A stretch of DNA of 64,000 bases. Origin: Minisyncoccota bacterium. GTDB lineage: Bacteria > Patescibacteriota > Minisyncoccia > 2-02-FULL-40-12 > GWA2-44-9. The notes under the pieces are model-generated. The model searched no databases. It was not told the DNA's origin and was given only the letters and a program-made list of their open reading frames with translations. The translations under genes were made by a program, and so were the position numbers. How positions within the stretch are numbered: position 1 is the stretch's first letter; the number at the start of each line of letters is the position of its first letter. Where the stretch lies: NCBI GenBank assembly GCA_030583765.1, contig CP129474.1, positions 331,921-395,920 on the forward strand, given 5' to 3'. Of the stretch, positions 8,985 to 27,413 are shown piece by piece.

Positions 8985-8992
8985 GTGCCCTT

Positions 8993-9340: not shown

Positions 9341-9346
9341 CTACAG

Positions 9347-9384: not shown

Positions 9385-9453
9385 TCTTGAAGGAAGGGAA
9401 TCGAACGGGTAGCGATAGGCCGATGCATAAAAATATAGCGGAAGAATTCTTAT

Positions 9454-10374
9454 CTAGTTACAATTCAGCGCCTTGCGCCAGCCGGCACTAAGGGCTTCAC
9501 TTTCGCTACAAAACCATCGCTCGCCCGCATCTTCGTTAATTTTCGTGGCGTTGTAAGAACGGCACCCTTCCACGTGATAGATTTTCTCTCCTGACGAGCT
9601 AATGTTCCCTTTTATATCGCATGTGCCACTTTGTGGAGCTAAAGTAGGCGTAGCTGCCTGCGCCGGCGCAGGAGTGGTAGTAGTTGAACAGGCTACGCCC
9701 CACAAACCAGTAGCGCTATTTCGGGCTTCAGTCTGCGCCGCTAGAAATACAGAATCGTATTTTACATCTGGCGGATATGTATATACCTTCGCAAATCCAT
9801 TCTTTACCAGCTCGAGATTCACAAAGAAATCACCCACATATACATAGCGAAGTAGTCGGCCGTACGCATCGCGATCTGTAACGTCTTTTTCTAACCTCAC
9901 ACTTTTTCCCAATACTAGCTCCGTATTTCGGCGAGAAGCTTCTTTCCCAAAGCATTGGACGGGCTTTCGAGGGTCGACTGTTTCCGGCGTATCGATGCCG
10001 ATATAACGAACGCGTTCGATAGTTCCATTATAGTCCACGTCAATCGTATCCCCATCAACCACGCGCGTAACGATAAACACATTTGGCAAACTTTGCGGTG
10101 ATTGTGTTTGTAGGAAGGGCGGTGTTGATACTGGAGCACTCTGTTGAAGCGTCGGTTGTTGGGTGGAGCGTTCTGCCCGCGGCGTTAGTGTTGGGGTGCT
10201 TTTTGGTAGCACAGAAGGAGTAACCGACGGACTCAATGTTACATCGCCAGTTTCAATGGCTTGGATCAGCAGCGCGCTTTCCTCCCCTTCTTCTTTCGGA
10301 GACTCCGAAAACAACGTGAGAAACAGAACCCCTCCGAGAAGAATAAGGCCTATGTTTTTGAATAACATCACCAT
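9454..10374 (-). CDS. Secreted/membrane-anchored thermonuclease (staphylococcal nuclease-like)
   Basis: N-terminal signal/TM (MLFKNIGLILLGGVLFLTLF). SNase core VVDGDTIDV...YIGIDTPE...RLLRYVY...GLW. Cys-rich C-terminal tail. Confidence 0.75.
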   Translation of the reverse strand: MVMLFKNIGLILLGGVLFLTLFSESPKEEGEESALLIQAIETGDVTLSPSVTPSVLPKSTPTLTPRAERSTQQPTLQQSAPVSTPPFLQTQSPQSLPNVFIVTRVVDGDTIDVDYNGTIERVRYIGIDTPETVDPRKPVQCFGKEASRRNTELVLGKSVRLEKDVTDRDAYGRLLRYVYVGDFFVNLELVKNGFAKVYTYPPDVKYDSVFLAAQTEARNSATGLWGVACSTTTTPAPAQAATPTLAPQSGTCDIKGNISSSGEKIYHVEGCRSYNATKINEDAGERWFCSESEALSAGWRKALNCN

Positions 10375-10444
10375 GCGCCTAGAAGTATTGATTATTTGTT
10401 CAAGCACTGCAATATAAGCACGTTTTAGCCCTTTCAGAGGTCGG

Positions 10445-10474
10445 TTGACACGTATGCATATTATGTTGTATAAT
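10445..10474 (+). promoter_or_regulatory. Consensus sigma70 promoter: TTGACA, 18-nt spacer, TATAAT
   Basis: Exact -35 and -10 hexamers upstream of the small high-GC ORF 10497..10703. Confidence 0.6.
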
Positions 10475-10496
10475 TATAGCTTAGAGAGGTGTCGAG

Positions 10497-10703
10497 ATGA
10501 AGAAGGCCATCGCAGTCTACGGAGTGAATTCCGTTCTGGGTCCGGTGCTGGTCGGCATCAGACTCGACGAGGACGCAGAAGCGCTGGCGCGGCAGTGGGA
10601 GCTCACGGTGGAAAAGAAAGAAACCGTGGGCGGATCGATCCGCCTCATCGCGCGCGACGGAGACAACCGACTGCTGTACCTGGACGAAGTTCCCATCCTC
10701 TAG
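10497..10703 (+). CDS. Small hypothetical protein (68 aa), high-GC cassette
   Basis: GAGAGG RBS, ATG start. Terminator immediately downstream. Confidence 0.45.
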   Translation: MKKAIAVYGVNSVLGPVLVGIRLDEDAEALARQWELTVEKKETVGGSIRLIARDGDNRLLYLDEVPIL

Positions 10704-10713
10704 CCCACGCCGC

Positions 10714-10763
10714 CCCGCACAAGAAGCCCCTCGCTTCGTCTGTGCGGGGTTTCTTTATTTTTA
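10714..10763 (+). terminator. Intrinsic terminator (ccccgcaca...tgtgcgggg plus T-run)
   Basis: 9-bp GC stem followed by tttctttattttt. Confidence 0.65.
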
Positions 10764-10845
10764 AGAACTAGATGAGCGGGATCCCCCCCTCACCCATACT
10801 TGCCGCGCACCTCTCGCAGTGCTACCGTGCCGGAAGGAGGTAGGC

Positions 10846-11091
10846 ATGAGCACCAGTCCGAGCGGTCCCATCGCACCCGAAGCCCCGTCGCCATCCCTCT
10901 GGCAGATGTCTCAAGAGGAGCTCTTGGCGCTGGCGGTTGTCAGGCTGCAGCTCGCGTGCACAAACTACAAACTCGCGCTCGAAGCCTCCGATGCGGGCAC
11001 TCGAGATGCGATGCGGCTTGCCGCAGAGCTGCGCAAAACAGAAGCCGAAGAGATCCTCGCGATCTACCGCGAGAGACTCCACCTCGACTAA
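10846..11091 (+). CDS. Small hypothetical protein (81 aa), high-GC cassette
   Basis: Strong RBS GGAAGGAGGT, 6 nt, then ATG (MSTSPSGPIAPE...). The track ORF starts earlier at a weaker start. Confidence 0.45.
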   Translation: MSTSPSGPIAPEAPSPSLWQMSQEELLALAVVRLQLACTNYKLALEASDAGTRDAMRLAAELRKTEAEEILAIYRERLHLD

Positions 11092-11127
11092 CCTCCCCTC
11101 CCCCGCTCGTCACACCAGACGAACGGG
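11090..11127 (+). terminator. Terminator, copy 1 of an identical 38-nt element (cccccgctcgtcacaccagacgaacgggggcttcttt)
   Basis: GC hairpin plus T-run. Identical sequence recurs at 11825..11862. Confidence 0.6.
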
Positions 11128-11141
11128 GGCTTCTTTATATA

Positions 11142-11170
11142 TTGACATAATGCTGAAAGCAGCGTAATAT
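11142..11170 (+). promoter_or_regulatory. Near-consensus sigma70 promoter: TTGACA, 17 nt, TAATAT
   Basis: Upstream of the membrane protein gene, followed by RBS AAGGAGG. Confidence 0.6.
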
Positions 11171-11194
11171 ATACGTCAGCCAAGGAGGCGTGAA

Positions 11195-11821
11195 GTGTAT
11201 GAGATCGCCGTTCTAGGGACTATCGTTCTCATGCTGGTCTCGGCGGCGGACTACGTTCGTCGCGCATGGATCCGCGAAACAAACCCAGTACCCGCAACGT
11301 GGATCCTCATGATGGTCATGATGGGTCTGTCGTTCTGGATGTATTGGGACAGTCCTCGGAAGTCGTTGACCGCCAACATCGGCGTTACCGCTGGCGTAGT
11401 GAACATTGTGATCATTCTCTCGGGAGTGATCGCGGCGAACATTCGCTACGGAACGCTGTCGGTGGCCTTCGACAAAGTGCAGAAGTGGTGTCTCGCAGGC
11501 GGAGCGGGAGTTGTGGCGTTTTGGTCCTTCACGGACCAACCGCTCATCTCTTACGCCCTTGTGCAGTGCGTTGCTCTCATAGGCTACTTCGCTACAGTGA
11601 AGCGGCTGCTGAAAGCGGAACGGAGCACGGAGCCACTTTTTCTCTGGGTTGCGGTGCTGTTCGCAAACCTGTGCGCACTCTACCCCGCCTGGGTCAAGAA
11701 CGATCCGTTCTCGTGGATCTACCTCGGCCGCGCAGTGCCCTCAACAATCCTTGTGATCTTCTTGATCGCGAGGATCAAGGGTAGGATGCGCCGAACAAGA
11801 ACAAGAGAACTCGATGCATAA
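11195..11821 (+). CDS. Polytopic membrane protein (208 aa), unknown function
   Basis: GTG start 5 nt after AAGGAGG. About 6 predicted TM helices. High GC. Confidence 0.5.
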   Translation: MYEIAVLGTIVLMLVSAADYVRRAWIRETNPVPATWILMMVMMGLSFWMYWDSPRKSLTANIGVTAGVVNIVIILSGVIAANIRYGTLSVAFDKVQKWCLAGGAGVVAFWSFTDQPLISYALVQCVALIGYFATVKRLLKAERSTEPLFLWVAVLFANLCALYPAWVKNDPFSWIYLGRAVPSTILVIFLIARIKGRMRRTRTRELDA

Positions 11822-11824
11822 CCG

Positions 11825-11862
11825 CCCCCGCTCGTCACACCAGACGAACGGGGGCTTCTTTT
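11825..11862 (+). terminator. Terminator, copy 2 of the identical 38-nt element
   Basis: Exact repeat of 11090..11127. Confidence 0.6.
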
Positions 11863-11912
11863 TACACACCCTGCGCACCGCATCCGTCATAAATACAGTA
11901 CACTAGAGCGAT

Positions 11913-12329
11913 ATGAAACATCCTATCTTCTGGCTTCGCATCGCGCTTGGTTGGCTTTTCGCATACGCAGGGATCGTGAAGATCATCAACCCCGCATGGA
12001 GTGCGGCGGGCTATTTGATGAGCGCAAAAACATTTTCCGGATTCTACGCATGGCTCGCAGGACCCAGCATGATCGGTATCACCAACCTCCTCAATGAGTG
12101 GGGCCTTTTGTTGGTTGGCCTCGGGCTTTTGAGCGGCGTGCTCGCCCGCCCCGCAGCATACGCAGGCGCACTCATGATGGTCCTCTACTACTTCCCTGTT
12201 CTCGATTTCCCTTACATTGGCGAACACTCCTTGTTAGTGGATGAGCACATCATCTACGCATTCGCACTCCTCCTCATCGCGCGAGCACCGTCGCTCGGCC
12301 CCATTCTACGCATCCCTAGACGCTCCTAA
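11913..12329 (+). CDS. DoxX-family membrane protein
   Basis: 138 aa. LRIALGWLFAYAGIVKI... is a typical DoxX N-terminus with 3-4 TM helices. Confidence 0.6.
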   Translation: MKHPIFWLRIALGWLFAYAGIVKIINPAWSAAGYLMSAKTFSGFYAWLAGPSMIGITNLLNEWGLLLVGLGLLSGVLARPAAYAGALMMVLYYFPVLDFPYIGEHSLLVDEHIIYAFALLLIARAPSLGPILRIPRRS

Positions 12330-12331
12330 CC

Positions 12332-12787
12332 ATGCGCGTCCCCTCTTTTTCTCTCCAAGATCAGGATGGAGTCACTCACACCCCAGAAGAATGGATGGGC
12401 CAATGGCTGTTGATCTACGTTTACCCGAAAGATAACACGCCGGGATGCACGAAGGAGGCGTGCGCTATTCGCGATGACTTTGAAACATTCCGCACGCTTG
12501 GCATTGCGGTGGCAGGCATGAGCGGAGATTCCGTACAGAGCCACAAAAAGTTTGCCGACGCATACCAGCTACCGTTCCCACTGCTCTCTGACCCCACCAA
12601 AGAAACCATGAAAGCACTGGGCGCCATTGGAGAAAAGAAGTTCATGGGACGCACGTTCGAGGGCATTCAACGAAAATCCTTTTTAGTGAATCCGGAAGGT
12701 GAGATTGTGAAAACATACGAGAAAGTCACGCCCGCAGAGCATGCACAAGAAGTGCTCGCGGACGTTCGCGCTCTCCTAGACAAATAA
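12332..12787 (+). CDS. bcp: Peroxiredoxin Bcp (thiol peroxidase)
   Basis: YPKDNTPGCTKEAC peroxidatic Cys motif within a thioredoxin fold. Confidence 0.85.
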   Translation: MRVPSFSLQDQDGVTHTPEEWMGQWLLIYVYPKDNTPGCTKEACAIRDDFETFRTLGIAVAGMSGDSVQSHKKFADAYQLPFPLLSDPTKETMKALGAIGEKKFMGRTFEGIQRKSFLVNPEGEIVKTYEKVTPAEHAQEVLADVRALLDK

Positions 12788-12801
12788 CCGAAGACAGCGT
12801 A

Positions 12802-13311
12802 TTGTATGCCTTCTCAAGGAGGAGGCTTTTGAGTAAAAAGAAGGTCATCAAAGGCGTGCCACTCACGCCCCTGCATATCGAGATCATGTTGGCGGCACAC
12901 GCCGTATGCCGCTACCACAGGTTCAAGCTGGTCTGGGGAAGCCAGCAGACTGGGGCCGCCCACCCAAGCTACGTAATCTACCCGTGTGAAGATCCGAACA
13001 CGTGGCACGGCGCGAGCCACCTGTGCCGGATCAGCATCCCCGAATGGGGACGCGGGGGCGCGATCGAGCTCCCCATCGCGCACGACCAAGTCGGCTTCAC
13101 CAACGGGTGGACGCCCGTGCGCGTCCACATCGGATCCGAGGCTTCGTACGGCGTTTCGGATATCCCCCTCTATGGGCTCATCTGGGGTGTGGATCTCCGA
13201 CGCCTCGGGCCCGGGCCCTATCGCACCAGGAAGTCCAAAGAGTTTGAGTACCGGCGCCTTCTGGAGTTCCGCGTTCGCGGCCGTCGCTACCTCGGCCCCA
13301 TCCCCAGATAG
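12802..13311 (+). CDS. Hypothetical protein, high-GC segment. Start uncertain (possible TTG after AGGAGGAGG)
   Basis: ORF in a very high-GC stretch with an equally long antisense ORF. Followed by terminator 13314-13359. Confidence 0.3.
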   Translation: MYAFSRRRLLSKKKVIKGVPLTPLHIEIMLAAHAVCRYHRFKLVWGSQQTGAAHPSYVIYPCEDPNTWHGASHLCRISIPEWGRGGAIELPIAHDQVGFTNGWTPVRVHIGSEASYGVSDIPLYGLIWGVDLRRLGPGPYRTRKSKEFEYRRLLEFRVRGRRYLGPIPR

Positions 13312-13376
13312 CCTCTCGCCCGTCATGAGCACAGCTCGTGGCGGGCGCTGTCTTTTTTTGGTAGCATCTGGACACC

Positions 13377-13919
13377 ATGAGTACGCTCTCTCACCCCATC
13401 GCCATCACTGATATTGAGACATCGGGCCTGGACGCACGCATCCATGAGATCTTAGAGCTTGCGGTCATTGTGGTTGACCCGCACACGCTGGAGCCGCTCA
13501 CCACATACAGCACGAAGATTCGCCCCACGCGGATCGAACGCGGCGCTAAAAAGGCGCTTGAGGTGTGTGGCTACGCTCCCGCCTCATGGCGCTATGCCGT
13601 AAACCTCCGCACCGCAATGGAAAACTATGCGGAAGCATGCAAGGGGGCTATTTTTGCAGGGCACAACGTCTTTTTCACGTGGTCGTTCATTGCCGAAGCG
13701 TTCCAGCAGAGCGGCATTGAAGACCCCACGGATTACCACCGTCTTGATCTCTTCTCTGTAGCGTGGGCGCACCAAAACATTCTCAACCGTCCCCGTGCCA
13801 CCATGCGACTTGAAGACATTGCCAAAGCGCTCGATATAGACCCAGAGCCAAAGCCCCATAGAGCCATGCAGGGAGCCAAGCTCCAGCTCGCCATTCTGCA
13901 GAAACTCATGCGGCCGTAG
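13377..13919 (+). CDS. DEDDh 3'-5' exonuclease (DnaQ/PolIII epsilon-like)
   Basis: ITDIETSGLD Exo I motif and FAGHNVFF Exo II-like motif. Confidence 0.75.
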   Translation: MSTLSHPIAITDIETSGLDARIHEILELAVIVVDPHTLEPLTTYSTKIRPTRIERGAKKALEVCGYAPASWRYAVNLRTAMENYAEACKGAIFAGHNVFFTWSFIAEAFQQSGIEDPTDYHRLDLFSVAWAHQNILNRPRATMRLEDIAKALDIDPEPKPHRAMQGAKLQLAILQKLMRP

Positions 13920-13944
13920 CCCCTCTTCCCTTTTTTCTCAAGGC

Positions 13945-14541
13945 GTGGTACACTGCGGTCCGTTCACTTTTCCTGCATTGCAGAACAAACTTCGCATCAA
14001 CAATTTTATCCGAGCGCCTGAAGTTCAGGTCATTACTGACGAGGGCAAGCAGCTTGGCGTCATGAAGATTACTGACGCTCTGCGCATGTCCCGCGAAATG
14101 GACCTTGATCTGGTAGAGGTTGGGCCAAACGCTCAACCCCCTATCGTGAAGATCATGGACTATGGGAAGTACCAGTACCTGAAGTCGCGCCAGGAGAAAA
14201 AGACAAAAGCTAAGGCGAAAGACCAAGAGACAAAAACGGTCCGCGTTGGCTTCAAAACGGGCACTCACGACATTGAGACCAAGGCCCGAAAGACGGACGA
14301 GTTCTTGCAAGAAGGCCACCCGGTGAAAGTAGAGCTGACCCTGCGCGGACGTGAAAAAGCGCTTGCGCACATGGGACTTGAGAAGCTCAAAAGCTTCCTT
14401 GCCACCCTCTCACAGCCCTACGTCACGCAAGGCGAACCAAAGCGTTCTCCGTTCGGCTGGGTAGTGATGATTCAGTTTGATAAGAAACGAAACCATGGCT
14501 CGACACAGCAAAACAAGCAAACCGCGCAACAGCAAGACTAA
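13945..14541 (+). CDS. infC: Translation initiation factor IF-3
   Basis: INNFIRAPEVQVITDEGKQLGVM and the C-terminal domain are typical of IF-3. The true start may be a non-ATG codon near the annotated ATG. Confidence 0.8.
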   Translation: MVHCGPFTFPALQNKLRINNFIRAPEVQVITDEGKQLGVMKITDALRMSREMDLDLVEVGPNAQPPIVKIMDYGKYQYLKSRQEKKTKAKAKDQETKTVRVGFKTGTHDIETKARKTDEFLQEGHPVKVELTLRGREKALAHMGLEKLKSFLATLSQPYVTQGEPKRSPFGWVVMIQFDKKRNHGSTQQNKQTAQQQD

Positions 14542-14722
14542 CCGCTCGCTCAAAAAGCGCGTTAAGATCACGGGTCGCAAGAAGATTCTCAAGCGCCCAC
14601 CACACCAGAACCACTTCAACGCGAAGGAGTCTGGCGAGCGTGCCCGCAACAAGAAGGGACAGTTGCACGCGCCAAAAGAAGTGCTCAAAAAGGCACGCGC
14701 ACTGCTCGCAAACGAGTTTTAA
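14495..14722 (+). CDS. rpmI: 50S ribosomal protein L35
   Basis: Lys/Arg-rich 75-aa protein between infC and rplT (conserved infC-rpmI-rplT operon). Overlaps the infC end in another frame. Confidence 0.65.
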   Translation: MARHSKTSKPRNSKTNRSLKKRVKITGRKKILKRPPHQNHFNAKESGERARNKKGQLHAPKEVLKKARALLANEF

Positions 14723-14731
14723 TTATTCACC

Positions 14732-15073
14732 ATGACACGCGTAAAACGAGGAGTACAACAGCATAAGCGTCGCGAGCGAATCCTGAAGCAGACCAAGGGC
14801 TTCATGTGGACCCGCAAGACAAAGATCCGCCAAGCAAAAGAGGCGCTCTTGCACGCATGGTCCCATGCCTTTGCAGACCGCAAGAAAAAGAAGCGCACCT
14901 CTCGCCGCCTGTGGCAGATTCAACTCAATGCCGCGGCACGCGAACAGGGCATCTCCTACTCAAAGTTGATCGCCCAACTCAAGACCGCGCAGATCGCCCT
15001 GGACCGCAAAGTCCTCGCCGACATCGCCCAGAACCACCCCGAAGTATTCAGCAAGGTTCTCGCAACGAAGTAA
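14732..15073 (+). CDS. rplT: 50S ribosomal protein L20
   Basis: MTRVKRGVQQHKRRERILKQTKGF... is a canonical L20 N-terminus. Confidence 0.9.
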   Translation: MTRVKRGVQQHKRRERILKQTKGFMWTRKTKIRQAKEALLHAWSHAFADRKKKKRTSRRLWQIQLNAAAREQGISYSKLIAQLKTAQIALDRKVLADIAQNHPEVFSKVLATK

Positions 15074-15087
15074 GTAGCTCTCCAACC

Positions 15088-15121
15088 ACAACACCCGCCT
15101 CAAGCGGGTGTTGTTTATTAT
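15088..15121 (+). terminator. Intrinsic terminator after rplT
   Basis: acaacacccgc-ctcaa-gcgggtgttgt followed by ttattatt. Confidence 0.6.
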
Positions 15122-15131
15122 TGGTAGCCCT

Positions 15132-15520
15132 CTATCCCCTAAGACACAATAGGAGAAGTTGCGCGTCTTGCGGCTTCTTTACATGTCTCCAAAAGAGTAT
15201 CGAGGATCGGCACGTCGGGACAATCTTGACCAACCGACGCTTTATATAACGAGCGCCGGAAAAACCGTCCTCAATACCTATGATCAAATTAAACTTTTCC
15301 CTCTCATATCTTGCTTCCATTCTGCAAGCTCAAATCTGGAAGTCTGGGCATATGACCTCCCGCAGTCATGAGTAGACTCCTTCGCAAGCCAAAATAGAAT
15401 TGCTCCGTTCTTGGCGCTCTTATTTAAATATTCCGTCTCCCAATCTACCTGTTTTTCGTAGACAAATTCGTTATCGAGATACTCTCTGCGTGGGCTTGGC
15501 AATGTATATAGTGGGGTCAA
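15132..15520 (-). pseudogene. Two overlapping short ORFs in different frames (78 aa and 62 aa) in an AT-rich segment. Possibly one disrupted gene
   Basis: ORFs 15284..15520 and 15132..15320 overlap out of frame. Local GC is much lower than the neighbours. Confidence 0.25.
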
Positions 15521-15662
15521 TCGTGTGAATAATTTTTATGGCCTCGCTCTGCCAATCTGGCGCTCCCTGAACTGGCCTGCTAAGAAAATAATGGGGCCCG
15601 TCTAGTGTGTTTGCTTTCTGGTGGAAGAATTACTTTATCATTCATGGGAACACTCATGGTAG

Positions 15663-15734
15663 TAGCCCTACGGGGAATCGAACCCCGATTTCCACCGTGA
15701 AAGGGTGGCGTCCTAACCGTTAGACGATAAGGCC
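15663..15734 (-). tRNA. tRNA-Glu (anticodon TTC)
   Basis: Cloverleaf by hand: acceptor GGCCTTA/TAGGGCT, anticodon stem CCACC/GGTGG, loop CTTTCAC, T-loop GGTTCGATTCC. Confidence 0.8.
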
Positions 15735-15803
15735 ATTGAAACGGTTACGAGTATCGCATGAAAATTGAAGAAAATCAACGTGCGTGCTAGTTTGGTGGGA
15801 CAC

Positions 15804-16886
15804 ATGGCAACCATTCTGGCCATTGAGACCTCGTGCGACGAAACCGCTATTGCGGTTGTTCAAGGCGCTCCAGATCGCGTACGCGTGCTCTCTAATGTCA
15901 TCTCTTCGCAGATCCCCGTGCACGCAGAGTGGGGTGGTGTCGTACCGCACATCGCCTCTCGCGAGCATGCCGCAAACATTGAGCACGTGTTTCAGCAGGC
16001 AATCCGTGACGCAGGCGTTGCATTCCTCAAGACATTGATGCTATCGCAGTCACCCACGGTCCTGGCCTTGGGCCAGCACTCATCATCGGCCTCACGTTCG
16101 CAAAAACGCTCGCCGCAGAAACGGGGCTGCCACTCATCGGCGTAGACCACATGGATGGGCACATCCATTCCAATTGGCTCGACGCAGAACAACCCATGGA
16201 TGCTGTCTTTCCAGTGCTCAATCTCATTGTGTCCGGTGGGCACACGGAGCTTGTCGTCATGCGCGATCACGGTGACTATGAAGTGATCGGAGAAACGCAA
16301 GACGATGCCGTTGGCGAAGCATTTGATAAAGTGGCGCGCATGTTGGGACTTGGATACCCAGGAGGCCCCGCGATTTCAAAGCTGGCACAAGAGGGCAATC
16401 CACTTGCATTCCCCTTCCCTCAACCCATGCGCGATAGCAATTCGTTTCACTTCAGCTACTCGGGCCTTAAAACCGCGGTGCTCTACGCACTCCGCGACAT
16501 GGGAGACGCGTTGAAAGAATCTGCCCGCGCAGATGTTGCCGCATCGTTTCAAGAAGCAGCCATTGAAGTGCTCGTGCATAAAACTATTCGCGCAGCACAC
16601 GCAAACAGATGCGAAAACGGTTTTGCTCTCTGGCGGTGTTTCTGCAAACAAACTCCTCCGCGAGCGCCTCGCACAGCGCCTTGCCGAAGAAGGCATCGCC
16701 CACGTACAGCCGCTCATGAAATACACCACTGACAACGCCGCGATGATCGGAGCCGCAGGCTATTTCCGATTCCGTGCAGGCGCCATTGGGCCATGGCACA
16801 CGGTCACCATGCGCCCCAACCTCACGCTTGGCGAAACAACAAGAGATACGCTACAATCAACAGCACATGCCTCGCGAACTTCCTAA
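15804..16886 (+). pseudogene. tsaD: tRNA N6-threonylcarbamoyladenosine synthase TsaD (Kae1/YgjD), split over three frames by two frameshifts
   Basis: Frame 1 [13 protein letters not shown]...[16 protein letters not shown]. Frame 2 [13 protein letters not shown]...SGGHTELV...GEAFDKVARMLGLGYPGGP. Frame 3 LLSGGVSANKLLRERL...TDNAAMIGAAGYF. Shift 1 at about 16029-16031 fits a missing A in ctcaa(a)gac (LKDIDA restored). Shift 2 at about 16592-16608. Confidence 0.75.
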
Positions 16887-19039
16887 GCAATACGACCACA
16901 CAGGAACGGAGTCGGATATCTATGCACTCTGGGAAAAGAGTGGCTTTTTTAACCTGACAACTCCTCCGAACGCCACAAAGAACCATTCTCCATTGTTCTT
17001 CCCCCACCAAACGTAACGGGCGTGCTCCACATTGGACACGCATATGAGGACGCACTCCAGGACGCCATTATTCGCTACCAGCGCATGCGCGGCAAGCGCG
17101 CGCTGTGGGTGCCTGGCACCGATTCTGCGGCCATGGCAACGCAGCCAAAAGTAGAGAAGATCATCCAAAAGGAGGAGGGAAAGAACCGCCATGAGATCGG
17201 CCGCGAAGAGCTTCGTGCGTCGCGTTGCCGCATTTGCAAAGGCAAGCGAAAACACCATTCTCTCGCAGGTAAGAAAAATGGGGGCATCACTCGACTGGTC
17301 CCGCTATGCCTACACCATGGATGATGCGCGCAATACGGCGGTAGCAACCGCCTTTCAGCGCATGTATGAAGCAGGCCTCATCTACCGCGGGAATCGTATT
17401 GTGAACTGGATCCCAAGGGCCAAACGGTTATCTCAGACGATGAAGTAGTGCACGAAGAACGTGACGCGAAGCTCTACACGTTCACCTACTCAAAAGACGT
17501 TCCCCATTCCTATCGCCACCACGCGACTTGAAACAAAAGTGGGAGACACCTGCGGTTGCCGTGCACCCTGACGATCGCGCTACCAACAATACATCGGCAA
17601 AGAATACGATGCTGTCTTTTATGACGTCCCCATTCACATAAAGGTGGTCGCGGATAAGGGCGTGGACATGACTTTTGGCACTGGCGCGCTTGGCGTCACC
17701 CCAGCGCACAGCATGGCCGACTGGGACATCGCCGATAAAAATGACCTCCCGCGCCCACAGGTTATTAATGAATACGCAAAGATGAGCGTTGAGGGTGCGC
17801 TCAAAGACAAGAAAACAACGGAGGCGCGCGAGCTTATCGCAACGTGGCTTGCGGAGCAGGGCCTTTTGCAAAAAGTAGAAGACATAAAACAAAATGTATC
17901 GATTGCCCGAGCGCACGGGCGGCATTATTGAGCCACTTCCCAAATTGCAGTGGTTTATTGATGTCGACAAGCCATTCACCATCCCCCATTCACAGATCAC
18001 CGGCATCTCCAGCGGCTCAGAAACAACTCTGAAAGAGATTATGCGCGTTGCCGTCACCAGTGGCGACGTACACATGCCTCAAGAGAACTTCCGCAAGGCA
18101 TACATGCACTGGATTGATAATCTGCACGACTGGTGCATTAGCAGACAGATTTGGTTTGGGCACCGTATTCCTATTTGGTATCGCGGCGAAGAAATCTTTT
18201 GCGGCGTGAGCGCACCCAGTGGCGACGGATGGGAACAAGATCCCGATGTGCTCGACACGTGGTTCTCCTCGGCGTTGTGGACGTTCTCTACGCTTGGGTG
18301 GCCGAACGCGTCGCAAGACCTGAAGACTTTCCATCCCACCTCTCTCATGTCTCCTGCGTATGAGATCCTCTTCTTATGGGTTTCTCGCATGATCCTCATG
18401 AGCGGATTTCACCTCGGTCAAGCTCCTTTTCAATCCGTGCTCATCCATGGCCTTGTGCGCGATTCAAAGGGAAGAAAGTTTAGTAAGTCCCTTGATAATG
18501 GCGTCGACCCGCTCGATATTATCGGGAAATATGGCGCAGATGCACTGCGCATGGGCCTGTTGGTAGGAACGGCTATTGGTAATGATTTGAAATTTGATGA
18601 AAGTAAAGTAAAAGGCTATCGCAACTTTGCAAACAAACTCTGGAACATCGCCCGCTTTGTACTCATGAATGCGCCAGACCAAACAATAGCTGAAGCACCC
18701 AGTCTTACCAGTGAGGACGCGCAGGCGCTTGCCGAACTCGCCACCCTTACGAAAGACATCACCAAAGATATGGAAGAGCTGCGCCTCTATCTCGCAGCTG
18801 AAAAGACGTATCACTACATCTGGCACACCTTTGCGGACATTCTTGTAGAGCGCGCGAAGCCACACCTCACCGGAACCGACCCGACAGCAAAAGCATCCGC
18901 GCAGTGGCTCATGCAAGAAGTGCTCGCAACGTCTCTCATACTACTCCACCCATTCATGCCGTTTGTGACAGAGGCAATTTGGCATGAAGTATTCCCAAAC
19001 AAAGGGCTTCTCATGATTGAGCCGTGGCCTTTGTCCTAG
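16858..19039 (+). pseudogene. valS: Valine--tRNA ligase, 5' half broken by at least 7 frameshifts, 3' 381 codons intact
   Basis: Segments in three frames match ValS: [114 protein letters not shown], then intact WCISRQIWFGHRIP...KMSKS-region (GRKFSKSLDN). Shifts at about 16975, 17210, 17408, 17495, 17548, 17575 and 17905, several in short homopolymers. Confidence 0.75.
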
Positions 19040-19075
19040 AGCCTTCGCCGCTTTTGCTGTATACTAACGTACAGC

Positions 19076-19804
19076 ATGCATCCTGCACTTGAAGCTTTTC
19101 TGCTCGTTAGCCTCGGGCTCCTCCCGAGCCTTCTCTGGCTCGCGTTCTTTTTGAGAAACGACTGTCATCCAGAACCAAAAGATCTTATTGCTCGCGCCTT
19201 TCTCATGGGGATCATTATTTCTCCCCTCGCATTGGCAGTTCAGTGGGTCTTGTTTTCTTTTGGGCAGTCGCTGTACGGCGTTGGCTTAAGCCTCACCGAC
19301 CCACGGTTTCTCTTCTTGAGCGCCTTTGCCGAAGAAGCGATAAAACTCGGAGCAGTCTGGTTCGCCATTCTTCAACTCCCTGAATTTGATGAGCCCGTTG
19401 ATGGCATGATTTATCTCATCACCGCGGCAATGGGCTTTGCGGCGATGGAAAACATTCTGGTAATGTTCCGCGCAGCAGAGAGTGGCGCTGGACTCGCGTT
19501 AGGCACGCACCTTTGGTTTCTGCGCTTTGCTGGCGCCACGCTTCTTCATGGTCTGGCATCAGCGTTGGCGGGATACTTCCTTGCGCTTGCATGGTTCTTC
19601 TCTCGGCATCGCACGTGGCTCATCCTTACCGGCCTTGCCGCAGCGACCGGTTTTCATTTCGTCTTTAATGTGCTCATTGCACAGCAAACGGGCGGCACAC
19701 TCTTCCCTCTCACCGGCCTGTTGATATTCCTCGCATTCCTTGTTGCCATACTCTTTGTTAAAATACGAGAGCGTAGACAGCGAACTCACGTGCAACTTGC
19801 ATAA
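19076..19804 (+). CDS. PrsW-family intramembrane metalloprotease
   Basis: Polytopic membrane protein with the PrsW signature EExxK (AFAEEAIKLG), FxxxE (FAAMENIL) and a conserved His (LLHGLASALAGY). Confidence 0.6.
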   Translation: MHPALEAFLLVSLGLLPSLLWLAFFLRNDCHPEPKDLIARAFLMGIIISPLALAVQWVLFSFGQSLYGVGLSLTDPRFLFLSAFAEEAIKLGAVWFAILQLPEFDEPVDGMIYLITAAMGFAAMENILVMFRAAESGAGLALGTHLWFLRFAGATLLHGLASALAGYFLALAWFFSRHRTWLILTGLAAATGFHFVFNVLIAQQTGGTLFPLTGLLIFLAFLVAILFVKIRERRQRTHVQLA

Positions 19805-19810
19805 CACAGC

Positions 19811-20194
19811 ATGAACGACTACCACGCAGAACTTGCCATCTCTAAAACACGAGCGCCAGCAGAGCCTGAGGGCCAGCTCACCATCGACGTCTTCCAGAAT
19901 GAAGACAATATTGTCATACAATCAACGATTGCCGGTGTCGCTCCCGAGAATCTCGACATTTCCATTACCGATGACATGGTTACTATTCGTGGTACGCGCA
20001 CACCAGAGCAGCGTGTACGCCCCACGGACTACTACTACCAAGAGCTCTTCTGGGGCCCCTTTTCACGCTCTATTATTCTCCCCGTAGACATCGATCCCGA
20101 TAGCGCGAAAGCCTCAATGAAGAATGGCATCCTCACCATTACATTACCGAAACTTGAGAAAGTAAAAACCCGCAAGATACGGGTGATTGAATAG
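19811..20194 (+). CDS. Hsp20/alpha-crystallin family small heat-shock protein
   Basis: 127 aa with an alpha-crystallin domain (IDVFQNEDNIVIQS...ASMKNGILTITLPK). Confidence 0.85.
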   Translation: MNDYHAELAISKTRAPAEPEGQLTIDVFQNEDNIVIQSTIAGVAPENLDISITDDMVTIRGTRTPEQRVRPTDYYYQELFWGPFSRSIILPVDIDPDSAKASMKNGILTITLPKLEKVKTRKIRVIE

Positions 20195-20276
20195 TGCTCC
20201 CGGCAGGACTTGAACCTGCACCTCGTGAGAGACATGGTCCTAAGCCATGCGCGTCTGCCAATTCCGCCACGGGAGC
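20195..20276 (-). tRNA. tRNA-Leu (anticodon TAG), type II with long variable arm
   Basis: Minus-strand cloverleaf: acceptor GCTCCCG/CGGGAGC, anticodon stem CATGG/CCATG, loop CTTAGGA, long variable arm, T-arm GCAGGTTCAAGTCCTGC. Confidence 0.8.
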
Positions 20277-20304
20277 GTTTCCCTAGCATACCCCAGAACC
20301 CCCA

Positions 20305-20339
20305 AAACACACAACGCCCCATAAGGGCGTTGTGTGTTT
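20305..20339. terminator. Bidirectional hairpin terminator between tRNA-Leu and the pilin-like array
   Basis: aaacacacaacgccc-cataa-gggcgttgtgtgttt: 15-bp stem. Confidence 0.6.
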
Positions 20340-20357
20340 GCGTGATCACGCAGAGAA

Positions 20358-20729
20358 CTAACGGAGCGAGCCTCGAGAGATGAGGCTTGCCAACGTGTTC
20401 AAGATAAGACCAATTGCCAAGATAACCGCTGCGCCCTTGATACCGTTCCAGATCTGCTCTTTTGCAGCACCGGCACCCTTGTCATCAGCGGACATGATCC
20501 ATTTAATGCCACCGATACCGATGTAGATAACGGCCAAAATCAAACCAATCGTGAGAATGAAGTTCGCGATCTGCTTCAAGAGGTCCTCAAGTTTGGTAAG
20601 GTCCAGAGTCGTTGTTGACTGAACTGGAGGGGTGGGGATGTTGATCTCTGCAGCGAGTACCAAGGCAGGAGAGAAGACAGCAAGTGCCAAGAGTGCTCCA
20701 GCTAGAATTTTTATATTACGTTTATTCAT
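20358..20729 (-). CDS. Pilin-like paralog 1: secreted two-helix hairpin protein (VirB2/TrbC-like topology)
   Basis: Start ATG 20729 (MNKRNIKILAGALLALAVFSPALVLA, signal peptide) preceded by AAGGGGGTGG. Mature part has two hydrophobic helices separated by the loop SADDKGAGAAKEQ. Confidence 0.6.
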   Translation of the reverse strand: MNKRNIKILAGALLALAVFSPALVLAAEINIPTPPVQSTTTLDLTKLEDLLKQIANFILTIGLILAVIYIGIGGIKWIMSADDKGAGAAKEQIWNGIKGAAVILAIGLILNTLASLISRGSLR

Positions 20730-20761
20730 ACGCCACCCCCTTTCTAAGAAATCGTACGGAC

Positions 20762-21214
20762 CTATCGCACGCACGAGCCACTACTTGAGCAATAATAACC
20801 CGCGGGGCACTGCGAACTACTAGTACAAGGGCCGACAAACCCGCCCGAATTGAAGCTCTGTGACTGGATGATCTCGTCAATCGTTTTTACCACAATGCCA
20901 AAGCCGAGAATAATCGCGATACCAATAAGCGCAGCTTTTATTGTACTTTTTGCCCCTTCAACGGCCTTAGTATCGGTCGCCGAAGTAATCCAGAGAATTG
21001 CTCCATAAGCAATGTAGCCAATACCGATCACAAGGCCTATGCCGAGTAGGAAGTTCACTACTTGCACAATAAGCTCTCGGATTTTATCAAGGGTAAGCGG
21101 AGTTCCTGTCACCGTAATCCCCTGTGGAGCCACGGCAGCAACGAAACTTGGAAGAATAATGAACGACAGAGCGAGTGTGACAATAAGTCCAGTAGTAAAT
21201 TTCCGTAGTGTCAT
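20762..21214 (-). CDS. Pilin-like paralog 2 with Cys-rich C-terminal tail
   Basis: Signal peptide (MTLRKFTTGLIVTLALSFIILPSFVAA). Same two-helix core as paralog 1 (VNFLLGIGLVIGIGYIAYG ... ALIGIAIILGFGIVV). Tail GPCTSSSQCPAGYYCSSSGSCVR. The track start at 21235 is a TTG. Confidence 0.6.
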   Translation of the reverse strand: MTLRKFTTGLIVTLALSFIILPSFVAAVAPQGITVTGTPLTLDKIRELIVQVVNFLLGIGLVIGIGYIAYGAILWITSATDTKAVEGAKSTIKAALIGIAIILGFGIVVKTIDEIIQSQSFNSGGFVGPCTSSSQCPAGYYCSSSGSCVR

Positions 21215-21224
21215 AGTGTGTATA

Positions 21225-21566
21225 TTATAAACCAACGCATGAAGGAAGTGAAGGCGTAGGCGCGCCGATAAACGCCGCGACGGTTAAAATAATCGTCCCC
21301 GCCCCCAAGATAACCGCCAGAGCAGTAAAGGCCCATATGAGTCCAGCTTTTGCCGAGCTAAACGGCCCAGGAGAACCCTGGCTCATAATCATCTTAATGC
21401 CGTACCATGCGATTCCTCCAATGACAAGAATGATGCTGACGCGGAGAAAAAAGCACATGAGCCCCGTGGCGATGATAATCACTCGCTCGTAGCCAAGATC
21501 CATTCCCGGAGTTTCTTGTATCCCCTCGGTAAGCGCTCCCGCCGCCATGTAGATAGGGTTGCTCAT
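21225..21566 (-). CDS. Pilin-like paralog 3 (no cleavable signal; two TM helices)
   Basis: ATG 21566 overlaps the TGA stop of paralog 4 (gaATGAgc), indicating translational coupling. Two long hydrophobic helices with a Pro/Gly-rich loop. Confidence 0.5.
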   Translation of the reverse strand: MSNPIYMAAGALTEGIQETPGMDLGYERVIIIATGLMCFFLRVSIILVIGGIAWYGIKMIMSQGSPGPFSSAKAGLIWAFTALAVILGAGTIILTVAAFIGAPTPSLPSCVGL

Positions 21567-22033
21567 TCTAAGATAACGCACGTACCATCACGGCACACCG
21601 CCCCTCCTGTGCACGGTGGATTACAGGCTGGGATTGGCGTTGGAGACGTGCCACTACCCCCAATATTCAACACACTCTCCACTAAATCTACGAACCCCCT
21701 GCCAATAAAGATGATAGCGAGACCGATCACTACTGACCAAATAATGTTATTCGCCTCTCCGATGGCTTTTGGATTTGATCCCGCGGTAAGGTATTTAATC
21801 CCCGCCCAGATGATCATAATAACCGCGATAGGAATAGCGATGGCGGTGATAAAGCGCAGTGCGGCGTTGATGAGATCAATAACGTTACCTGATGCAAGCG
21901 GATTTCTAAGACACAGAGAGCCCTCTGGACATGGGTCCGCGGCAAACGCAGAGCTAGAGCTAAACAGGAGAACGCCAACAAGAAGAGTCATAAGCAGTAC
22001 TCGCATCATATTAGTTATTATATCACGCCTCAT
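21563..22033 (-). CDS. Pilin-like paralog 4 with Cys-rich N- and C-terminal segments
   Basis: Signal peptide MMRVLLMTLLVGVLLFSSSSAFA. Motif AALRFITAIAIPIAV shared with the fusion protein. Tail ACNPPCTGGAVCRDGTCVILE. Confidence 0.6.
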   Translation of the reverse strand: MRRDIITNMMRVLLMTLLVGVLLFSSSSAFAADPCPEGSLCLRNPLASGNVIDLINAALRFITAIAIPIAVIMIIWAGIKYLTAGSNPKAIGEANNIIWSVVIGLAIIFIGRGFVDLVESVLNIGGSGTSPTPIPACNPPCTGGAVCRDGTCVILE

Positions 22034-22038
22034 TTAAG

Positions 22039-22989
22039 CTAATTTAATTGCCAGTGAATATGATTCGTTTGCGAAACCGCGCAGTCTGCGACAACCGCAC
22101 CGCCCGCCGCTTCACAAATAACGTATCCCCCACGCAATGCGAGAAAATCACGGGCCGCTCGCCATTTTGCTGAGTCGCCGCTCGGGATAGTAATGTCAAC
22201 CGCAGTGCCGCGATAATGCTGACTATTGGCGCTATGGCTTCCAGTCGTAAGCGACGATACGACAAATTGGTGCCCATTCTGAGAAAGGGCTATAAGACCG
22301 TCAAGGATGCGTTGGTCAACGGTAACCGTACCCGACGCGCCACCTGGAGTGCATCCAGCAGCGCATCGGTTACTACACACCGACGGAAGTTGTCCCGCTG
22401 CCAGCGAATCTATATTCCCCCGCGCATGATTTGGAGCACCACAATCGGCACTTGTAGAGAATGTAACGCCACCCTGCGTAAGAAGACGTTGAGCTGCGGC
22501 CTGCACCGACGAAGATGGCGGCACCGAAACGGTATTCGTCGGAGCTGGAGGAAGATTTATATTCTCATCGGGCGTACAGGTAATCGGTTCATACCATTTT
22601 ACATTCGCGCCGAAATAGTTACTCGCCACAAATTTTAAGAATGTATTCACCACCATCCATGCAAGCATAATCACCACAAGCCCAATAATTGCATTTGAAA
22701 AAAGCGTATTGCTCTGTGAGACGCTCTTTGTGTTTGTTGCTCCCGCAACCCGGATAAAACCGGCAATGATAAAAAGAATAGTGGCTACCAGGGGCGCCGC
22801 AACAAACATCACGAATCGAAGAGCAGAATCTGCTGCCTCAACGAGATGGCACGTCTGACACATCGCATTCACCCCTGTGTCAGTCGACTTCCCACAAGGG
22901 ACCACAGCAGCCTCTACGGGAAGAGCAAAGACTCCACTGAACATGACTGCGAGTACCGCCCCCGACATGATGCGAGTGAGTGTGCTCAT
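22039..22989 (-). CDS. Fusion protein: N-terminal pilin-like two-helix domain plus C-terminal peptidase M15 (LAS/VanY-like) peptidoglycan hydrolase domain
   Basis: N-terminus (signal, CxxxC, SALRFVMFVAAPLVA, second TM) is paralogous to the small proteins. C-terminal about 180 aa carry the Zn-ligand pattern of LAS/M15 peptidases: SHSANSQHYRGTAVDI (H-x6-D) and NHIHWQ (HxH). ATG overlaps the stop of the upstream SBP gene (ATGA). Confidence 0.6.
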   Translation of the reverse strand: MSTLTRIMSGAVLAVMFSGVFALPVEAAVVPCGKSTDTGVNAMCQTCHLVEAADSALRFVMFVAAPLVATILFIIAGFIRVAGATNTKSVSQSNTLFSNAIIGLVVIMLAWMVVNTFLKFVASNYFGANVKWYEPITCTPDENINLPPAPTNTVSVPPSSSVQAAAQRLLTQGGVTFSTSADCGAPNHARGNIDSLAAGQLPSVCSNRCAAGCTPGGASGTVTVDQRILDGLIALSQNGHQFVVSSLTTGSHSANSQHYRGTAVDITIPSGDSAKWRAARDFLALRGGYVICEAAGGAVVADCAVSQTNHIHWQLN

Positions 22990-24347
22990 GGTTTACGGCG
23001 AAGTTCCTGCATGAGGACTGATACACGAGCCTCTGCGTTGCGCAGCGCCTCACGCACTGAAGATCTACCGAAATTGACACTATCAATCATCTCCGCAAAG
23101 ATCGTTTCGATTGCCGAAAAATCCGCCTGGAACCAACTTTGCGCAGTGAGCGCTTGATCTGCAAATACGCCAAGATCGGGATCGGTTTTTTGGCGTGTAA
23201 TGATGCTCCGCAACGCCGCGGGACGGCGCGCCTCTGATAGATACAACGTTGCCCCCTCCTCTGACGCCAAGAAGTCGACGAACTCCCACGCCTGATCCAC
23301 ATACGGCGACGCCGCAGACACAACAGGAGTCCAGTAGTTTGCGTATGTGCGCACATCGTTGCGCGCCAACTGCTGTGCGTGTTGTGGCATCGGCGCAACT
23401 GCGATATTCAAACGCGGCGCACGAGCACGAATCGCGTCAATTTGGTGAGCATAGTTAAACATCATCGCCGCATTTCCTTCCACAAAAGCATCGATCGAGT
23501 AGTGTTGCGAATCGTTCCACGTGTACGAAACTTTCCCCGGATTAGTAAAGTCAGTGTAGTATTGCAGTGCAACCTCCCCTACGGCCTGATTATTCACCGA
23601 GCGACCAAACGTTGCTTCTGTGCGGTCAGCGTCCGTCATTTGAACGCCGCTCTGCAGCATCAGTGCCGCAAGAATATCGGTTGAACGATTAATATTGCGC
23701 GCAGAGCCGATCGCCGCCCCCGCGCGAACGATATTCTGCCGATCGTCTCGTGTTGTCAGCTTCTCAACCGCCTGATTAAATTCCTCCCACGTACGCGGAG
23801 GGTTTTCTATGCCCGCAGCGTTGAAAAGGTCGCGGTTCCAGTAGAGCGCAAGAGAATCAACGTACAGTGGCAGTGAATAGATTTTGCCATCAGCGATAAG
23901 GTCCCTCTGGGCGACGTCGACAAAAGATTCTTGAAATTCACGCTGTGTCATAAGCGGCCCGTCGGCGCCAGACACACGTTCTGGCATGGGGGCCAGTTTC
24001 GCCTTATGCTTCGGGAGCCAAGTGTGGTGAATCATCCACACGTCCGGACCGCGACCAGACGCGAGCGCTTCAATTACGTCACGCTCATATGTTGCATAAG
24101 AAAACAGTTTGTAGGTAACGCGTATGTTTGGGTGAAGCGACTGGAACTTGTCGAGCGCGGGGCGCATGATGCGCGGATCGTCGAATACTCCCCAGAACGT
24201 AATTTCAGCTCGCGCTTCTTGCTCATTACCCCCTCCTCCAAAACCACGGAGTACAAGAATGGCGGTGAGAAAAACGAGTAGCCCAACAGAAATGCCAAGA
24301 ACATATACGAGACGATTTGGGCTAGTAAGCGTTTGAAAAATACTCAT
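22986..24347 (-). CDS. Membrane-anchored extracellular solute-binding protein (SBP family 1-like)
   Basis: N-terminal TM (LVYVLGISVGLLVFLTAILVL) then a periplasmic-binding-protein fold typical of sugar ABC SBPs. No permease or ATPase genes adjacent. Confidence 0.65.
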   Translation of the reverse strand: MSIFQTLTSPNRLVYVLGISVGLLVFLTAILVLRGFGGGGNEQEARAEITFWGVFDDPRIMRPALDKFQSLHPNIRVTYKLFSYATYERDVIEALASGRGPDVWMIHHTWLPKHKAKLAPMPERVSGADGPLMTQREFQESFVDVAQRDLIADGKIYSLPLYVDSLALYWNRDLFNAAGIENPPRTWEEFNQAVEKLTTRDDRQNIVRAGAAIGSARNINRSTDILAALMLQSGVQMTDADRTEATFGRSVNNQAVGEVALQYYTDFTNPGKVSYTWNDSQHYSIDAFVEGNAAMMFNYAHQIDAIRARAPRLNIAVAPMPQHAQQLARNDVRTYANYWTPVVSAASPYVDQAWEFVDFLASEEGATLYLSEARRPAALRSIITRQKTDPDLGVFADQALTAQSWFQADFSAIETIFAEMIDSVNFGRSSVREALRNAEARVSVLMQELRRKP

Positions 24348-24898
24348 GACGTCTTTTTAAAAATGAGAATGTAGTGAAATGCCCCTGCGTCCGCATTCCG
24401 CTCAAAAACAAAACCCTCTTTTTGCACGATAGTGCGCATATCGTCCACGCTCGTGCGCATATCGTCCACGGGCCCCATGCCACCGGCCCCCTTTGCCCAT
24501 TCTATAACCACTAGGCGCCCGTCTAACTTGAGTACCCGATGCGCTTCTTGAAGAATGTTTTCTTTTTTTTGAGATTGGAAGAGGACGTTTGCGATTGTCA
24601 CCATATCGAGGGCACCGTCTGGAATGCCGGTGCTCTTAGGAACCTCAAGATCCGCTCGAACAGTCCGAATATTTTCAAGCCCAGCCGCTTGCGCACGAGT
24701 TCGCACGCTTTCGAGCGGTGGATTTTGCACATCGATCGCAACAACCTCGCCGCGTGATCCCACGCGTTGGCCAAGCTGAATCGTATAAAAACCTGTGCCG
24801 CATCCAAAGTCGGCAACGCGCATCCCCTCACGAACGCCGACGTCCTTCAGAGATGCTGATGTATCTAAAAACGGCCGCTGTGCATGTTCTGACATCAC
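24344..24898 (-). CDS. Class I SAM-dependent methyltransferase
   Basis: VADFGCGTGFYT motif I. Contains an in-frame 21-nt tandem duplication (VDDMRTS/VDDMRTI). Stop overlaps the SBP start. Confidence 0.75.
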   Translation of the reverse strand: MMSEHAQRPFLDTSASLKDVGVREGMRVADFGCGTGFYTIQLGQRVGSRGEVVAIDVQNPPLESVRTRAQAAGLENIRTVRADLEVPKSTGIPDGALDMVTIANVLFQSQKKENILQEAHRVLKLDGRLVVIEWAKGAGGMGPVDDMRTSVDDMRTIVQKEGFVFERNADAGAFHYILIFKKTS

Positions 24899-24936
24899 CT
24901 ACAGTGTATCATGCTTTTGCAACCGCGGTATCAACA

Positions 24937-27405
24937 CTATGCGAGAACAACCGAAACAACACGATCGCCCGCTTCAAGTTTCATCACACGAACTCCCTGC
25001 GTTGCGCGGCCTAAGAGCGAAACAGCGTCGATGGTTGTGCGGATGACCTGCCCCTTGCTCGAAACGGCGATGAGCTCCTTGAATTCTTCAGACGCAATGT
25101 GCGCCGATACTAGGCTTCCCGTTTTTTCAGTGATCTTTGCCGTCATAATGCCCTTGCCGCCACGCTTTTGCACTTTATATGCCTTGAGTTCCGTACGCTT
25201 TCCATAACCCCGCTCCATTACCGCCAAGAGTTGCAGGCCCTTTTCTGATCCTGCAGGAACACAATCTGCGCCCACCAGCCGCTCGCCCGCTTCGATACGA
25301 ACACCGATCACGCCGCCGGCGGTACGGCCCATTGGACGAACTTCTTTTTCTTCAAACCGAATAGCATTCCCTCCAGAGGTTGTCATGATAATCTGGTCTT
25401 TTCCTGATGTGACGAGCACCCAGCGCAATGCATCGCCCGGCTTGAGGTTCATGGCGATCATGCCGTTCTTTCGCACATTTGCGAAAGCGTCGAGAGGAAC
25501 TTTTTTCACCACGCCCTGTTCGGTCGTCATGAAGAGGAACCCACCCTGTCCTTTTTTGCTCTTTGGGACAGGAACCACCGCGGTGATCACATCGCTTGAA
25601 GAGACCTGTAGGAAGTTTGCGATTGCTCGTCCCTTCGATTGGCGCGAAGACTCAGGGACTTCGTATCCCTTCGTTTGGAATACCTTACCTGACTGCGTGA
25701 AGAACAAGATGTTGTCATGTGTATTCGCAAGGAAGAACTGGGTAACGACATCTTCTTCTTTTGTAGCAATGCCAACAAGTCCCTTACCGCCGCGCTTCTG
25801 GGCACGCAAATCTTCTGGGGCAAGACGCTTGATGTACCCGCCATGCGTCATCATGAAGAGGGCGCTCTCTTCGGGGACAAGCTCTTCGTCTCCAATCTCT
25901 CGGAGAGCCGACTTCACAACATTCGTGCGGCGATCGTCGCCGTACACATCTGCGATGTGCTGAAATTCTTCTTTAATAACTGCGAGAATCTTTTTCGGAT
26001 GCTTGAGTAGGTCTTCAAGATATGCGATGAGCTTACGCTTCTCCGCGAGCTCGTCATCGATCTTTTTCCGCTCAAGGCCGGCGAGCGTCTGTAGGCGCAT
26101 GTCCAAAATTGCGTCGGCCTGCCGCTCCGAAAAAGCAAACTTCTTCATCAAATTTACACGCGCATCTTCGCGTGCCTGAGACTTTTTAATAGTCTCGATG
26201 ATCTTATCAATGTGGTCGAGCGCCTTACTCAATCCTTCAAGGATGTGCGCCCTGTCCTTTGCTTTTGCAAGATCGTATTCTGTGCGGCGCGTTACCACCA
26301 CCTTGCGATGAGAAATAAACTGCTCCAACAGGGGCTTTAGCCCGAGCACATTGGGCTGAATGCCGTCCACAAGCGCCAACATGTTAAAGTGAAACGTTTT
26401 TTGGAGTTCCGTAAACTTGTAGAGCTGGTTGAGGATCTTCTTTGGAAATGCGTCCTGCTTTAATTCAATGACAACACGAATATCGCGACCTGATTCATCG
26501 CGCACATCCTTAATACCCTCAACCTTCTTTTCTTTCACGAGATCTGCGATCGCGACAACGAGATCGGACTTGTTCACCTGATACGGAATCTCGCTAATGA
26601 TAATGTCAAAGCCACGCTTTGATTCCACAATCTCCGCTCGCCCACGCATCACTACTGGACCGCGGCCAGTTGCATATGCATTAATAATGTCCTTCTCGTT
26701 ATAAATGGTGCCGCCCGTTGGAAAGTCTGGGCCCTTCACAAATTCCATGAGGTCTGTGACGTCGGCATCAGGGTTGTCGATAAGATGCACGAGCGCCTGA
26801 CACACCTCACGTAGATTGTGTGGAGGAATGTTAGTCGCCATACCGACGGCAATGCCCATCGAGCCGTTCACGAGCAGATTAGGAATGCGCGCCGGAAGAA
26901 CCGCTGGCTCCTTACGGGATCCATCGTAGTTGTCTCGAAATTCAACAGTGTCTTTTTCGATATCCGTAAGGAGTTCGTCACTGATGCGTGCGAGACGTGC
27001 CTCAGTGTAGCGCATAGCTGCGGCGTTATCGCCGTCAATTGAACCAAAGTTTCCCTGTCCTTGTACGAGCGGGTAGCGGAGTGAGAAGTCTTGCGCCATG
27101 CGCACCAAGGCATCATAGATCGCAGAGTCACCGTGCGGATGGTAGCGGCCCATCACCTCACCAACGGTGTTCGCAGACTTGCGGAGCTTTGCCCCCGCAA
27201 CATTCCCCGACTCCCACATGCCCCACAGAATGCGGCGATGCACTGGCTTAAGACCGTCGCGCGCGTCAGGAAGTGCGCGCGAAATAATAACGCTCATCGC
27301 GTATTCCAAATATGAACGTTGTACTTCTTCGGTGATATCCCGGGGAAGTACGTTGCTCGTGCGCTCTATGTGGTCGTCAGAGGATGCCATAGCTGAAGTA
27401 TTCAA
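24937..27405 (-). CDS. gyrA: DNA gyrase subunit A
   Basis: 822 aa. Active-site region [30 protein letters not shown] is the QRDR-like region. C-terminal beta-pinwheel repeats. Confidence 0.9.
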
Positions 27406-27413
27406 TCATAGGC

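Follow-up and report, generated by a model that had tools for sequence, protein, structure and literature searches.

Bacterial genes that are truly decaying are expected to accumulate substitutions and, eventually, in-frame stop codons, together with indels that vary in length and are biased towards deletion. The tracts at which slippage is known to occur are far longer than 1-3 nt. Sequencing is a further source of broken reading frames: PMC8812927 describes the residual errors of long reads as mostly changes in homopolymer length, which outlast short-read polishing in repeats, and PMC12007338 describes false frameshifts and pseudogenes arising from long-read errors. The locus considered here lies in a 64-kb window, meaning the whole stretch of DNA that was analysed, and its frameshifts are very probably (about 0.95, judging from comparisons with other assemblies) consensus or polishing errors local to this assembly, in an organism whose nucleoside 2-deoxyribosyltransferase-like (Ndt-like), TsaD and ValRS proteins would all be intact.

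The gene order in this part of the window runs infC-rpmI-rplT, then a tRNA-Glu gene on the minus strand, then tsaD and valS on the plus strand. The features discussed are as follows.

15114 to 15171, no strand: structural-variant junction at the left edge of the patch, from alignment with contig L081
15139 to 15657, minus strand: Nuc_deoxyri_tr2-like gene (PF15891; nucleoside 2-deoxyribosyltransferase-like), with six one-base indels
15171 to 18366, no strand: segment free of SNPs, identical in all Logan contigs of at least 99.8% identity
15234 to 17906, no strand: apparent error patch, with 17 one-base indels and 0 substitutions
15662 to 15734, minus strand: tRNA-Glu(UUC), called by ARAGORN, within the patch
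15804 to 16886, plus strand: tsaD, with apparent one-base errors at 16025 (a missing C) and 16603 (an extra A)
16867 to 19039, plus strand: valS, with nine apparent one-base errors

Six-frame ORFs of the window contain tsaD and valS only in pieces, which match the Pfam families TsaD, tRNA-synt_1 and Anticodon_1. Frameshift-aware protein-to-DNA alignment of homologues 61-68% identical made valS continuous once one-base shifts were allowed, and placed these shifts near 17214, 17411, 17499, 17551, 17577 and 17908; in the same alignment conservation was high, and no in-frame stops were found in the shift-corrected valS. Comparison with near-identical contigs resolved the individual sites. In tsaD, CCC is read as CC at 16025, in the context ttc(c)ctc, and AA is read as AAA at 16603. 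In valS, a C is missing at 16955 and again at 16961, a T is added at 16965 and another at 17212, a G is missing at 17408, a G is added at 17499, a C is added at 17549, a C is missing at 17576 and a C is added at 17906; the three changes at 16955, 16961 and 16965 fall within 11 nt, and are seen as a single net shift. From 17907 onward, over the last 1.1 kb of valS, no indels were found relative to the near-identical contigs. The Ndt-like gene lacks a C at 15234 and at 15314, gains a C at 15495, lacks a G at 15574, and gains a C at 15599 and a G at 15609. Between 15609 and 16025, an interval that includes tRNA-Glu(UUC), there are no differences from the other assemblies.

Applying the 17 corrections to the window gives three complete ORFs, encoding an Ndt-like protein of 172 aa, a TsaD of 360 aa and a ValRS of 723 aa. 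The Ndt-like gene is also whole in contigs L081, L088 and L089, where it encodes 173 aa, and the last few residues of this protein differ between the forms of the locus with and without an adjoining NUDIX gene. Corrected TsaD reaches 404.5 bits against TIGR03723, for which the cutoff is 296.1. Corrected ValRS reaches 858.3 bits against NF004349, valine--tRNA ligase (cutoff 704), and has the class I motifs HIGH (residue 55) and KFSKS (residue 537). The corrected genes are TsaD and ValRS, both above the NCBIfam equivalog cutoffs.

An earlier note, made from the window alone, had described tsaD as readable only with two frame switches, valS as needing at least seven, and the downstream 1.1 kb of valS as clean. 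All of this agrees with the present results: the six-frame ORFs, Pfam matches and frameshift-aware alignment give two switches in tsaD, which contig comparison places at 16025 and 16603, seven switches are visible in valS, with nine indels by contig comparison, and its downstream part has none. The cluster that the note reported is likewise real, and far beyond chance, but the limits it was given (16020-17910, under 2 kb) have to be redrawn as 15234-17906, or 2.7 kb, and the statement that all flanking genes are intact was mistaken, as the Ndt-like gene upstream has six indels. Two of four proposed sites were correct, namely tgg(g)atccc (17408) and gat c(c)g cgc (17576). The other two were misplaced: the first shift in tsaD is not at ctcaa(a)gac but at ttc(c)ctc (16025), and instead of an extra C in gtt ccc(c)att there is an extra G at 17499, gac[g]ttc.

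The evidence that carries the main reading comes from independent assemblies of the same population. Logan contigs were found by exact look-up of the window's intact neighbouring proteins, in runs SRR26372211, SRR26372204, SRR26372205, SRR26372209, SRR24881069, DRR859381 and SRR31091725, and those of the same population match the window at 98.3-100% identity. The patch is covered, partly or in full, by six contigs from five runs (L081, L082, L084, L088, L089 and L093). These are mutually identical over 15171-18366, and the 17 one-base indels are their sole differences from the window in that interval. Gene calls on the Logan contigs recover both TsaD (360 aa) and ValRS (723 aa) intact. The more distant L085 (98.3% identity, 1.7% diverged) also lacks the insertion at 17906, and the only further small indels between it and the window are at 29584 and within a pilin-like gene that is hypervariable. 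The corrected sequence with continuous ORFs that the earlier note had named as the mark of an assembly or polishing error is therefore available in substance, from the contigs of the five runs and, at the last site, from L085.

Away from the patch, no indels were found relative to contigs of at least 98.8% identity in 1-11129, 11832-15114, 17907-32111, 35221-46138 and 48090-59365, the comparison being made without window positions 11130-11831, 32112-35220, 46139-48089 and 59366-64000; look-ups for 44307-46082, 60743-63094 and 33872-34561 found no matching assembly. Same-strain contigs over about 51 kb of flanks have 0 indels, and only strain SNPs. Contigs from SRR24881069 are 100% identical to the window at 5252-8632, 11885-15114 and 24253-32111, and another from this run has a single mismatch over 35221-46138; on sequence, this run appears to come from the window's own sample or from one very similar to it. 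In L093 (window 15171-24176), the contig of this run that covers the patch, tsaD and valS are intact and all 17 indels are absent. Over 18367-19703 L093 has the haplotype of another strain, with 38 SNPs relative to the window, and is not strictly the window's genome; L081, L082 and L084 match the window across those positions, and tsaD and valS are intact there also.

The composition of the patch points the same way. Base by base against the near-identical Logan contigs, it contains 17 one-base indels and 0 substitutions, divided into nine insertions and eight deletions, every one exactly 1 nt, with six in the Ndt-like gene, two in tsaD and nine in valS. The bases affected are C in 10 cases, G in four, T in two and A in one, meaning C or G is involved in 14 of the 17. 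Run-length changes account for 13 of the 17 (the longer allele having 2-3 identical bases), and the other four lie outside runs; no motif common to the 17 contexts was found, and shifts of +1 and -1 are mixed. The patch makes up about 2.7 kb of the approximately 53.5 kb compared, yet holds all 17 indels, for which the rough probability under random placement is P ~2.5e-20. Against L081, the flanks have 17 SNPs and 0 indels, whereas the patch has 17 indels and 0 SNPs (Fisher P = 8.6e-10).

Firstly, then, the other assemblies are free of the indels and agree with one another; secondly, the spectrum of differences is that of error, as one-base changes in both directions, in short runs and unaccompanied by substitutions, match the signature of residual long-read consensus error; thirdly, the ORFs are restored once these changes are removed. 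Among the three options that the earlier note had left unranked, the intact contigs strongly support a mis-polished or low-coverage region. Nothing favours decaying paralogs, as there is no second copy in the window, the indels are absent from other assemblies and there are zero substitutions, and unusual recoding fares no better, with no other assembly of the population containing the indels and, again, zero substitutions.

Variation between strains around the patch offers a candidate cause. At 15114-15171 the window is without about 448 nt of L081 (3283-3784) that include a NUDIX gene of 118 aa; a divergent stretch of 57 nt stands there instead. This NUDIX hydrolase gene is present in the SRR263722xx contigs, and missing from the window and from L091 (DRR859381), which has the same NUDIX-less junction and matches window 13357-15200. 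In SRR24881069, contig L090 stops exactly at 15114 and L093 begins exactly at 15171, breaks that would be the product of a variant bubble, with both forms present in one sample. Towards the right, co-occurring haplotypes first differ by a SNP at 18367. The patch falls within the 3.2-kb segment between these bounds, 15171-18366.

Beyond that bound, the 38 SNPs that separate the window from L093 are confined to 18367-19703 and are densest at 19546-19660, with identity on both sides; most fall at every third base in a PrsW-like gene. The pattern resembles a tract of recombination, or haplotypes that are mosaic between strains. The window is itself a haplotype mosaic, with flanks like L090 and L086, and a stretch like L081 at 17907-19703. 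A small T4SS-pilin-like gene, at window 21510-21630, is hypervariable relative to L085: its SNPs are dense, and it has small indels that compensate for one another.

Long reads were probably used for this assembly. The 2.7-kb stretch would then have retained the uncorrected one-base errors of noisy long reads, with the rest of the contig accurate. In a strain-resolved metagenome assembly, a segment identical between co-occurring strains would act like a repeat, and ambiguous read mapping, or bridging by few reads, could lead polishing to skip it. Polishing may have failed at this patch because the segment is identical among strains, being bounded by the NUDIX junction and the SNP at 18367, a link suggested by the coincidence of these boundaries.

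An artefact of another origin is possible, though we hold it only tentatively: a gap between short-read contigs may have been closed by a few low-quality reads, or the assembly may have followed a low-coverage path through a minor strain. The exact breaks of the SRR24881069 contigs at 15114 and 15171 would fit such a gap, as would the haplotype mosaic of the window, and the involvement of plus-strand C in 10 of the 17 indels hints at few reads in one orientation. However, the right end of the patch, at 17906, is at no observed contig break, and L093 continues through it to 24176. This explanation is a variant of the preferred one, and leads to the same verdict of an artefact.

That tsaD, valS and the Ndt-like gene are real decaying pseudogenes, whose working copies lie at another place in the genome or come from a host or partner, is very improbable. 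The indels are present in the sequence as given, and CPR bacteria are reduced symbionts in which gene loss is conceivable. Yet 17 indels with 0 substitutions over 2.7 kb, beside flanks that have substitutions only, are not what decay should produce; nor is a set in which all indels are 1 nt, with insertions about as frequent as deletions and no deletion bias. The corrected frame is fully conserved and has no in-frame stops, such that none of the marks of real decay (substitutions, variable-length and deletion-biased indels, in-frame stops) was seen in the patch. Furthermore, the conspecific contigs encode exactly the corrected protein, all other assemblies of the population are intact, among them one from the run that is 100% identical elsewhere, and no second copy of tsaD or valS was found within the 64-kb window.

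We give as little credence to the possibility that the window's strain truly carries the 17-indel tract, whether through recent local mutagenesis that made indels only or through a dead duplicate replacing the live copy; if it did, this would be a CPR line without its own TsaD and ValRS, reliant on a partner or a second locus. Least probable of all, to the point of being scarcely credible, is that programmed ribosomal frameshifting, transcriptional slippage or insertional RNA editing restores the frames, for although many of the sites are short runs of C or G, and the essential tsaD and valS would need rescue if the DNA were real, the shifts are both +1 and -1 in contexts without a common motif, the runs are of 1-3 nt only, and the same genes in the same population are unshifted, so no recoding system is needed.

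The window belongs to a Parcubacteria/Kaiserbacteria-like CPR bacterium, its best ValRS homologues coming from genomes named Kaiserbacteria, Parcubacteria or Yonathbacteria. More distant relatives have single-frame valS genes, several with tsaD directly upstream, and the shifts are absent in most related genomes. Compared with 185,579 GTDB species representatives, the ValRS C-terminus has a best match of only 66% identity. The idea that valS is commonly split in this clade, raised by top ValRS database matches that are all of 665 aa or fewer, was rejected because relatives and the Logan contigs have full-length, single-frame valS genes; the short matches reflect fragmentary contigs. Several pairs of ORFs that overlap on the same strand in other parts of the window were also considered as possible further frameshifts, and no indels were found where comparison was possible. 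Exact look-ups of a 381-aa valS fragment and a 193-aa tsaD fragment returned no record, and thus no public assembly in the collection searched with the shifted version, which is a weak result since gene callers may pick other starts, a scan of JGI metagenomes with a pattern allowing either version of 17499 gave no match, and no literature on the run accessions was found. In a public metagenome-assembled genome, Candidatus Yonathbacteria MHUS01000023.1 (L001, at about 2906-3027), valS lies in two frames, with residues 1-143 in frame 1 and those from 95 in frame 2, so this record too may contain a frameshift or an assembly error.

Other features of the window were observed in passing. An isoleucyl-tRNA synthetase gene (window 1-1569, minus strand; L094 9561-13007) encodes 1148 aa, with only its 5' part in the window, and has a His_Phos_1 (PF00300) match between its tRNA-synt_1 matches, an insertion or fusion of domains that would be unusual. 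A tmRNA gene at 8993-9341 encodes the tag peptide GNSQPVVAYA; smpB lies close by, at about 4.9-5.3 kb. At 20358-22989, five small minus-strand genes with weak TrbC/T4SS_pilin matches lie beside a solute-binding protein gene, an arrangement common in CPR genomes. GC content falls to 0.43-0.46 at about 52000-54600, around dnaA and dnaN (genes on L099), and this is probably the replication-origin region.

The value of recognising the patch as an artefact is for curation only. Annotation of this CPR genome would falsely list tsaD, valS and the Ndt-like gene as pseudogenes, which would lower completeness estimates, and false claims that reduced symbionts have lost t6A synthesis or Val-tRNA charging could follow. 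Indel-only patches in strain-shared segments of otherwise accurate metagenome assemblies are a failure mode worth screening for.

The comparison with known systems is consistent with this assessment. The pseudogene clusters of reduced symbionts resemble this locus in having multiple frameshifts in adjacent genes; however, this locus lacks substitutions and larger deletions, no in-frame stops remain once it is corrected, and its genes are essential and intact in all conspecific assemblies. The rescue of frameshifted genes by programmed frameshifting or transcriptional slippage, as in endosymbionts with long poly-A tracts, likewise involves frameshifts at mononucleotide runs in essential genes, but the runs at this locus are of 1-3 nt rather than nine or more, the directions are mixed, and the shifts are absent elsewhere in the population. 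The residual indels of long reads, from ONT or PacBio CLR, differ from those seen here in some respects, as the present runs are very short (1-3 nt), four of the 17 changes are outside runs, and the "repeat" would be a segment shared by strains in a metagenome instead of an intragenomic repeat. Nevertheless, they share with this patch one-base gains and losses, largely within short runs and without substitutions, genes that are fully restored once the changes are removed, and a position where the placement of reads would be ambiguous.
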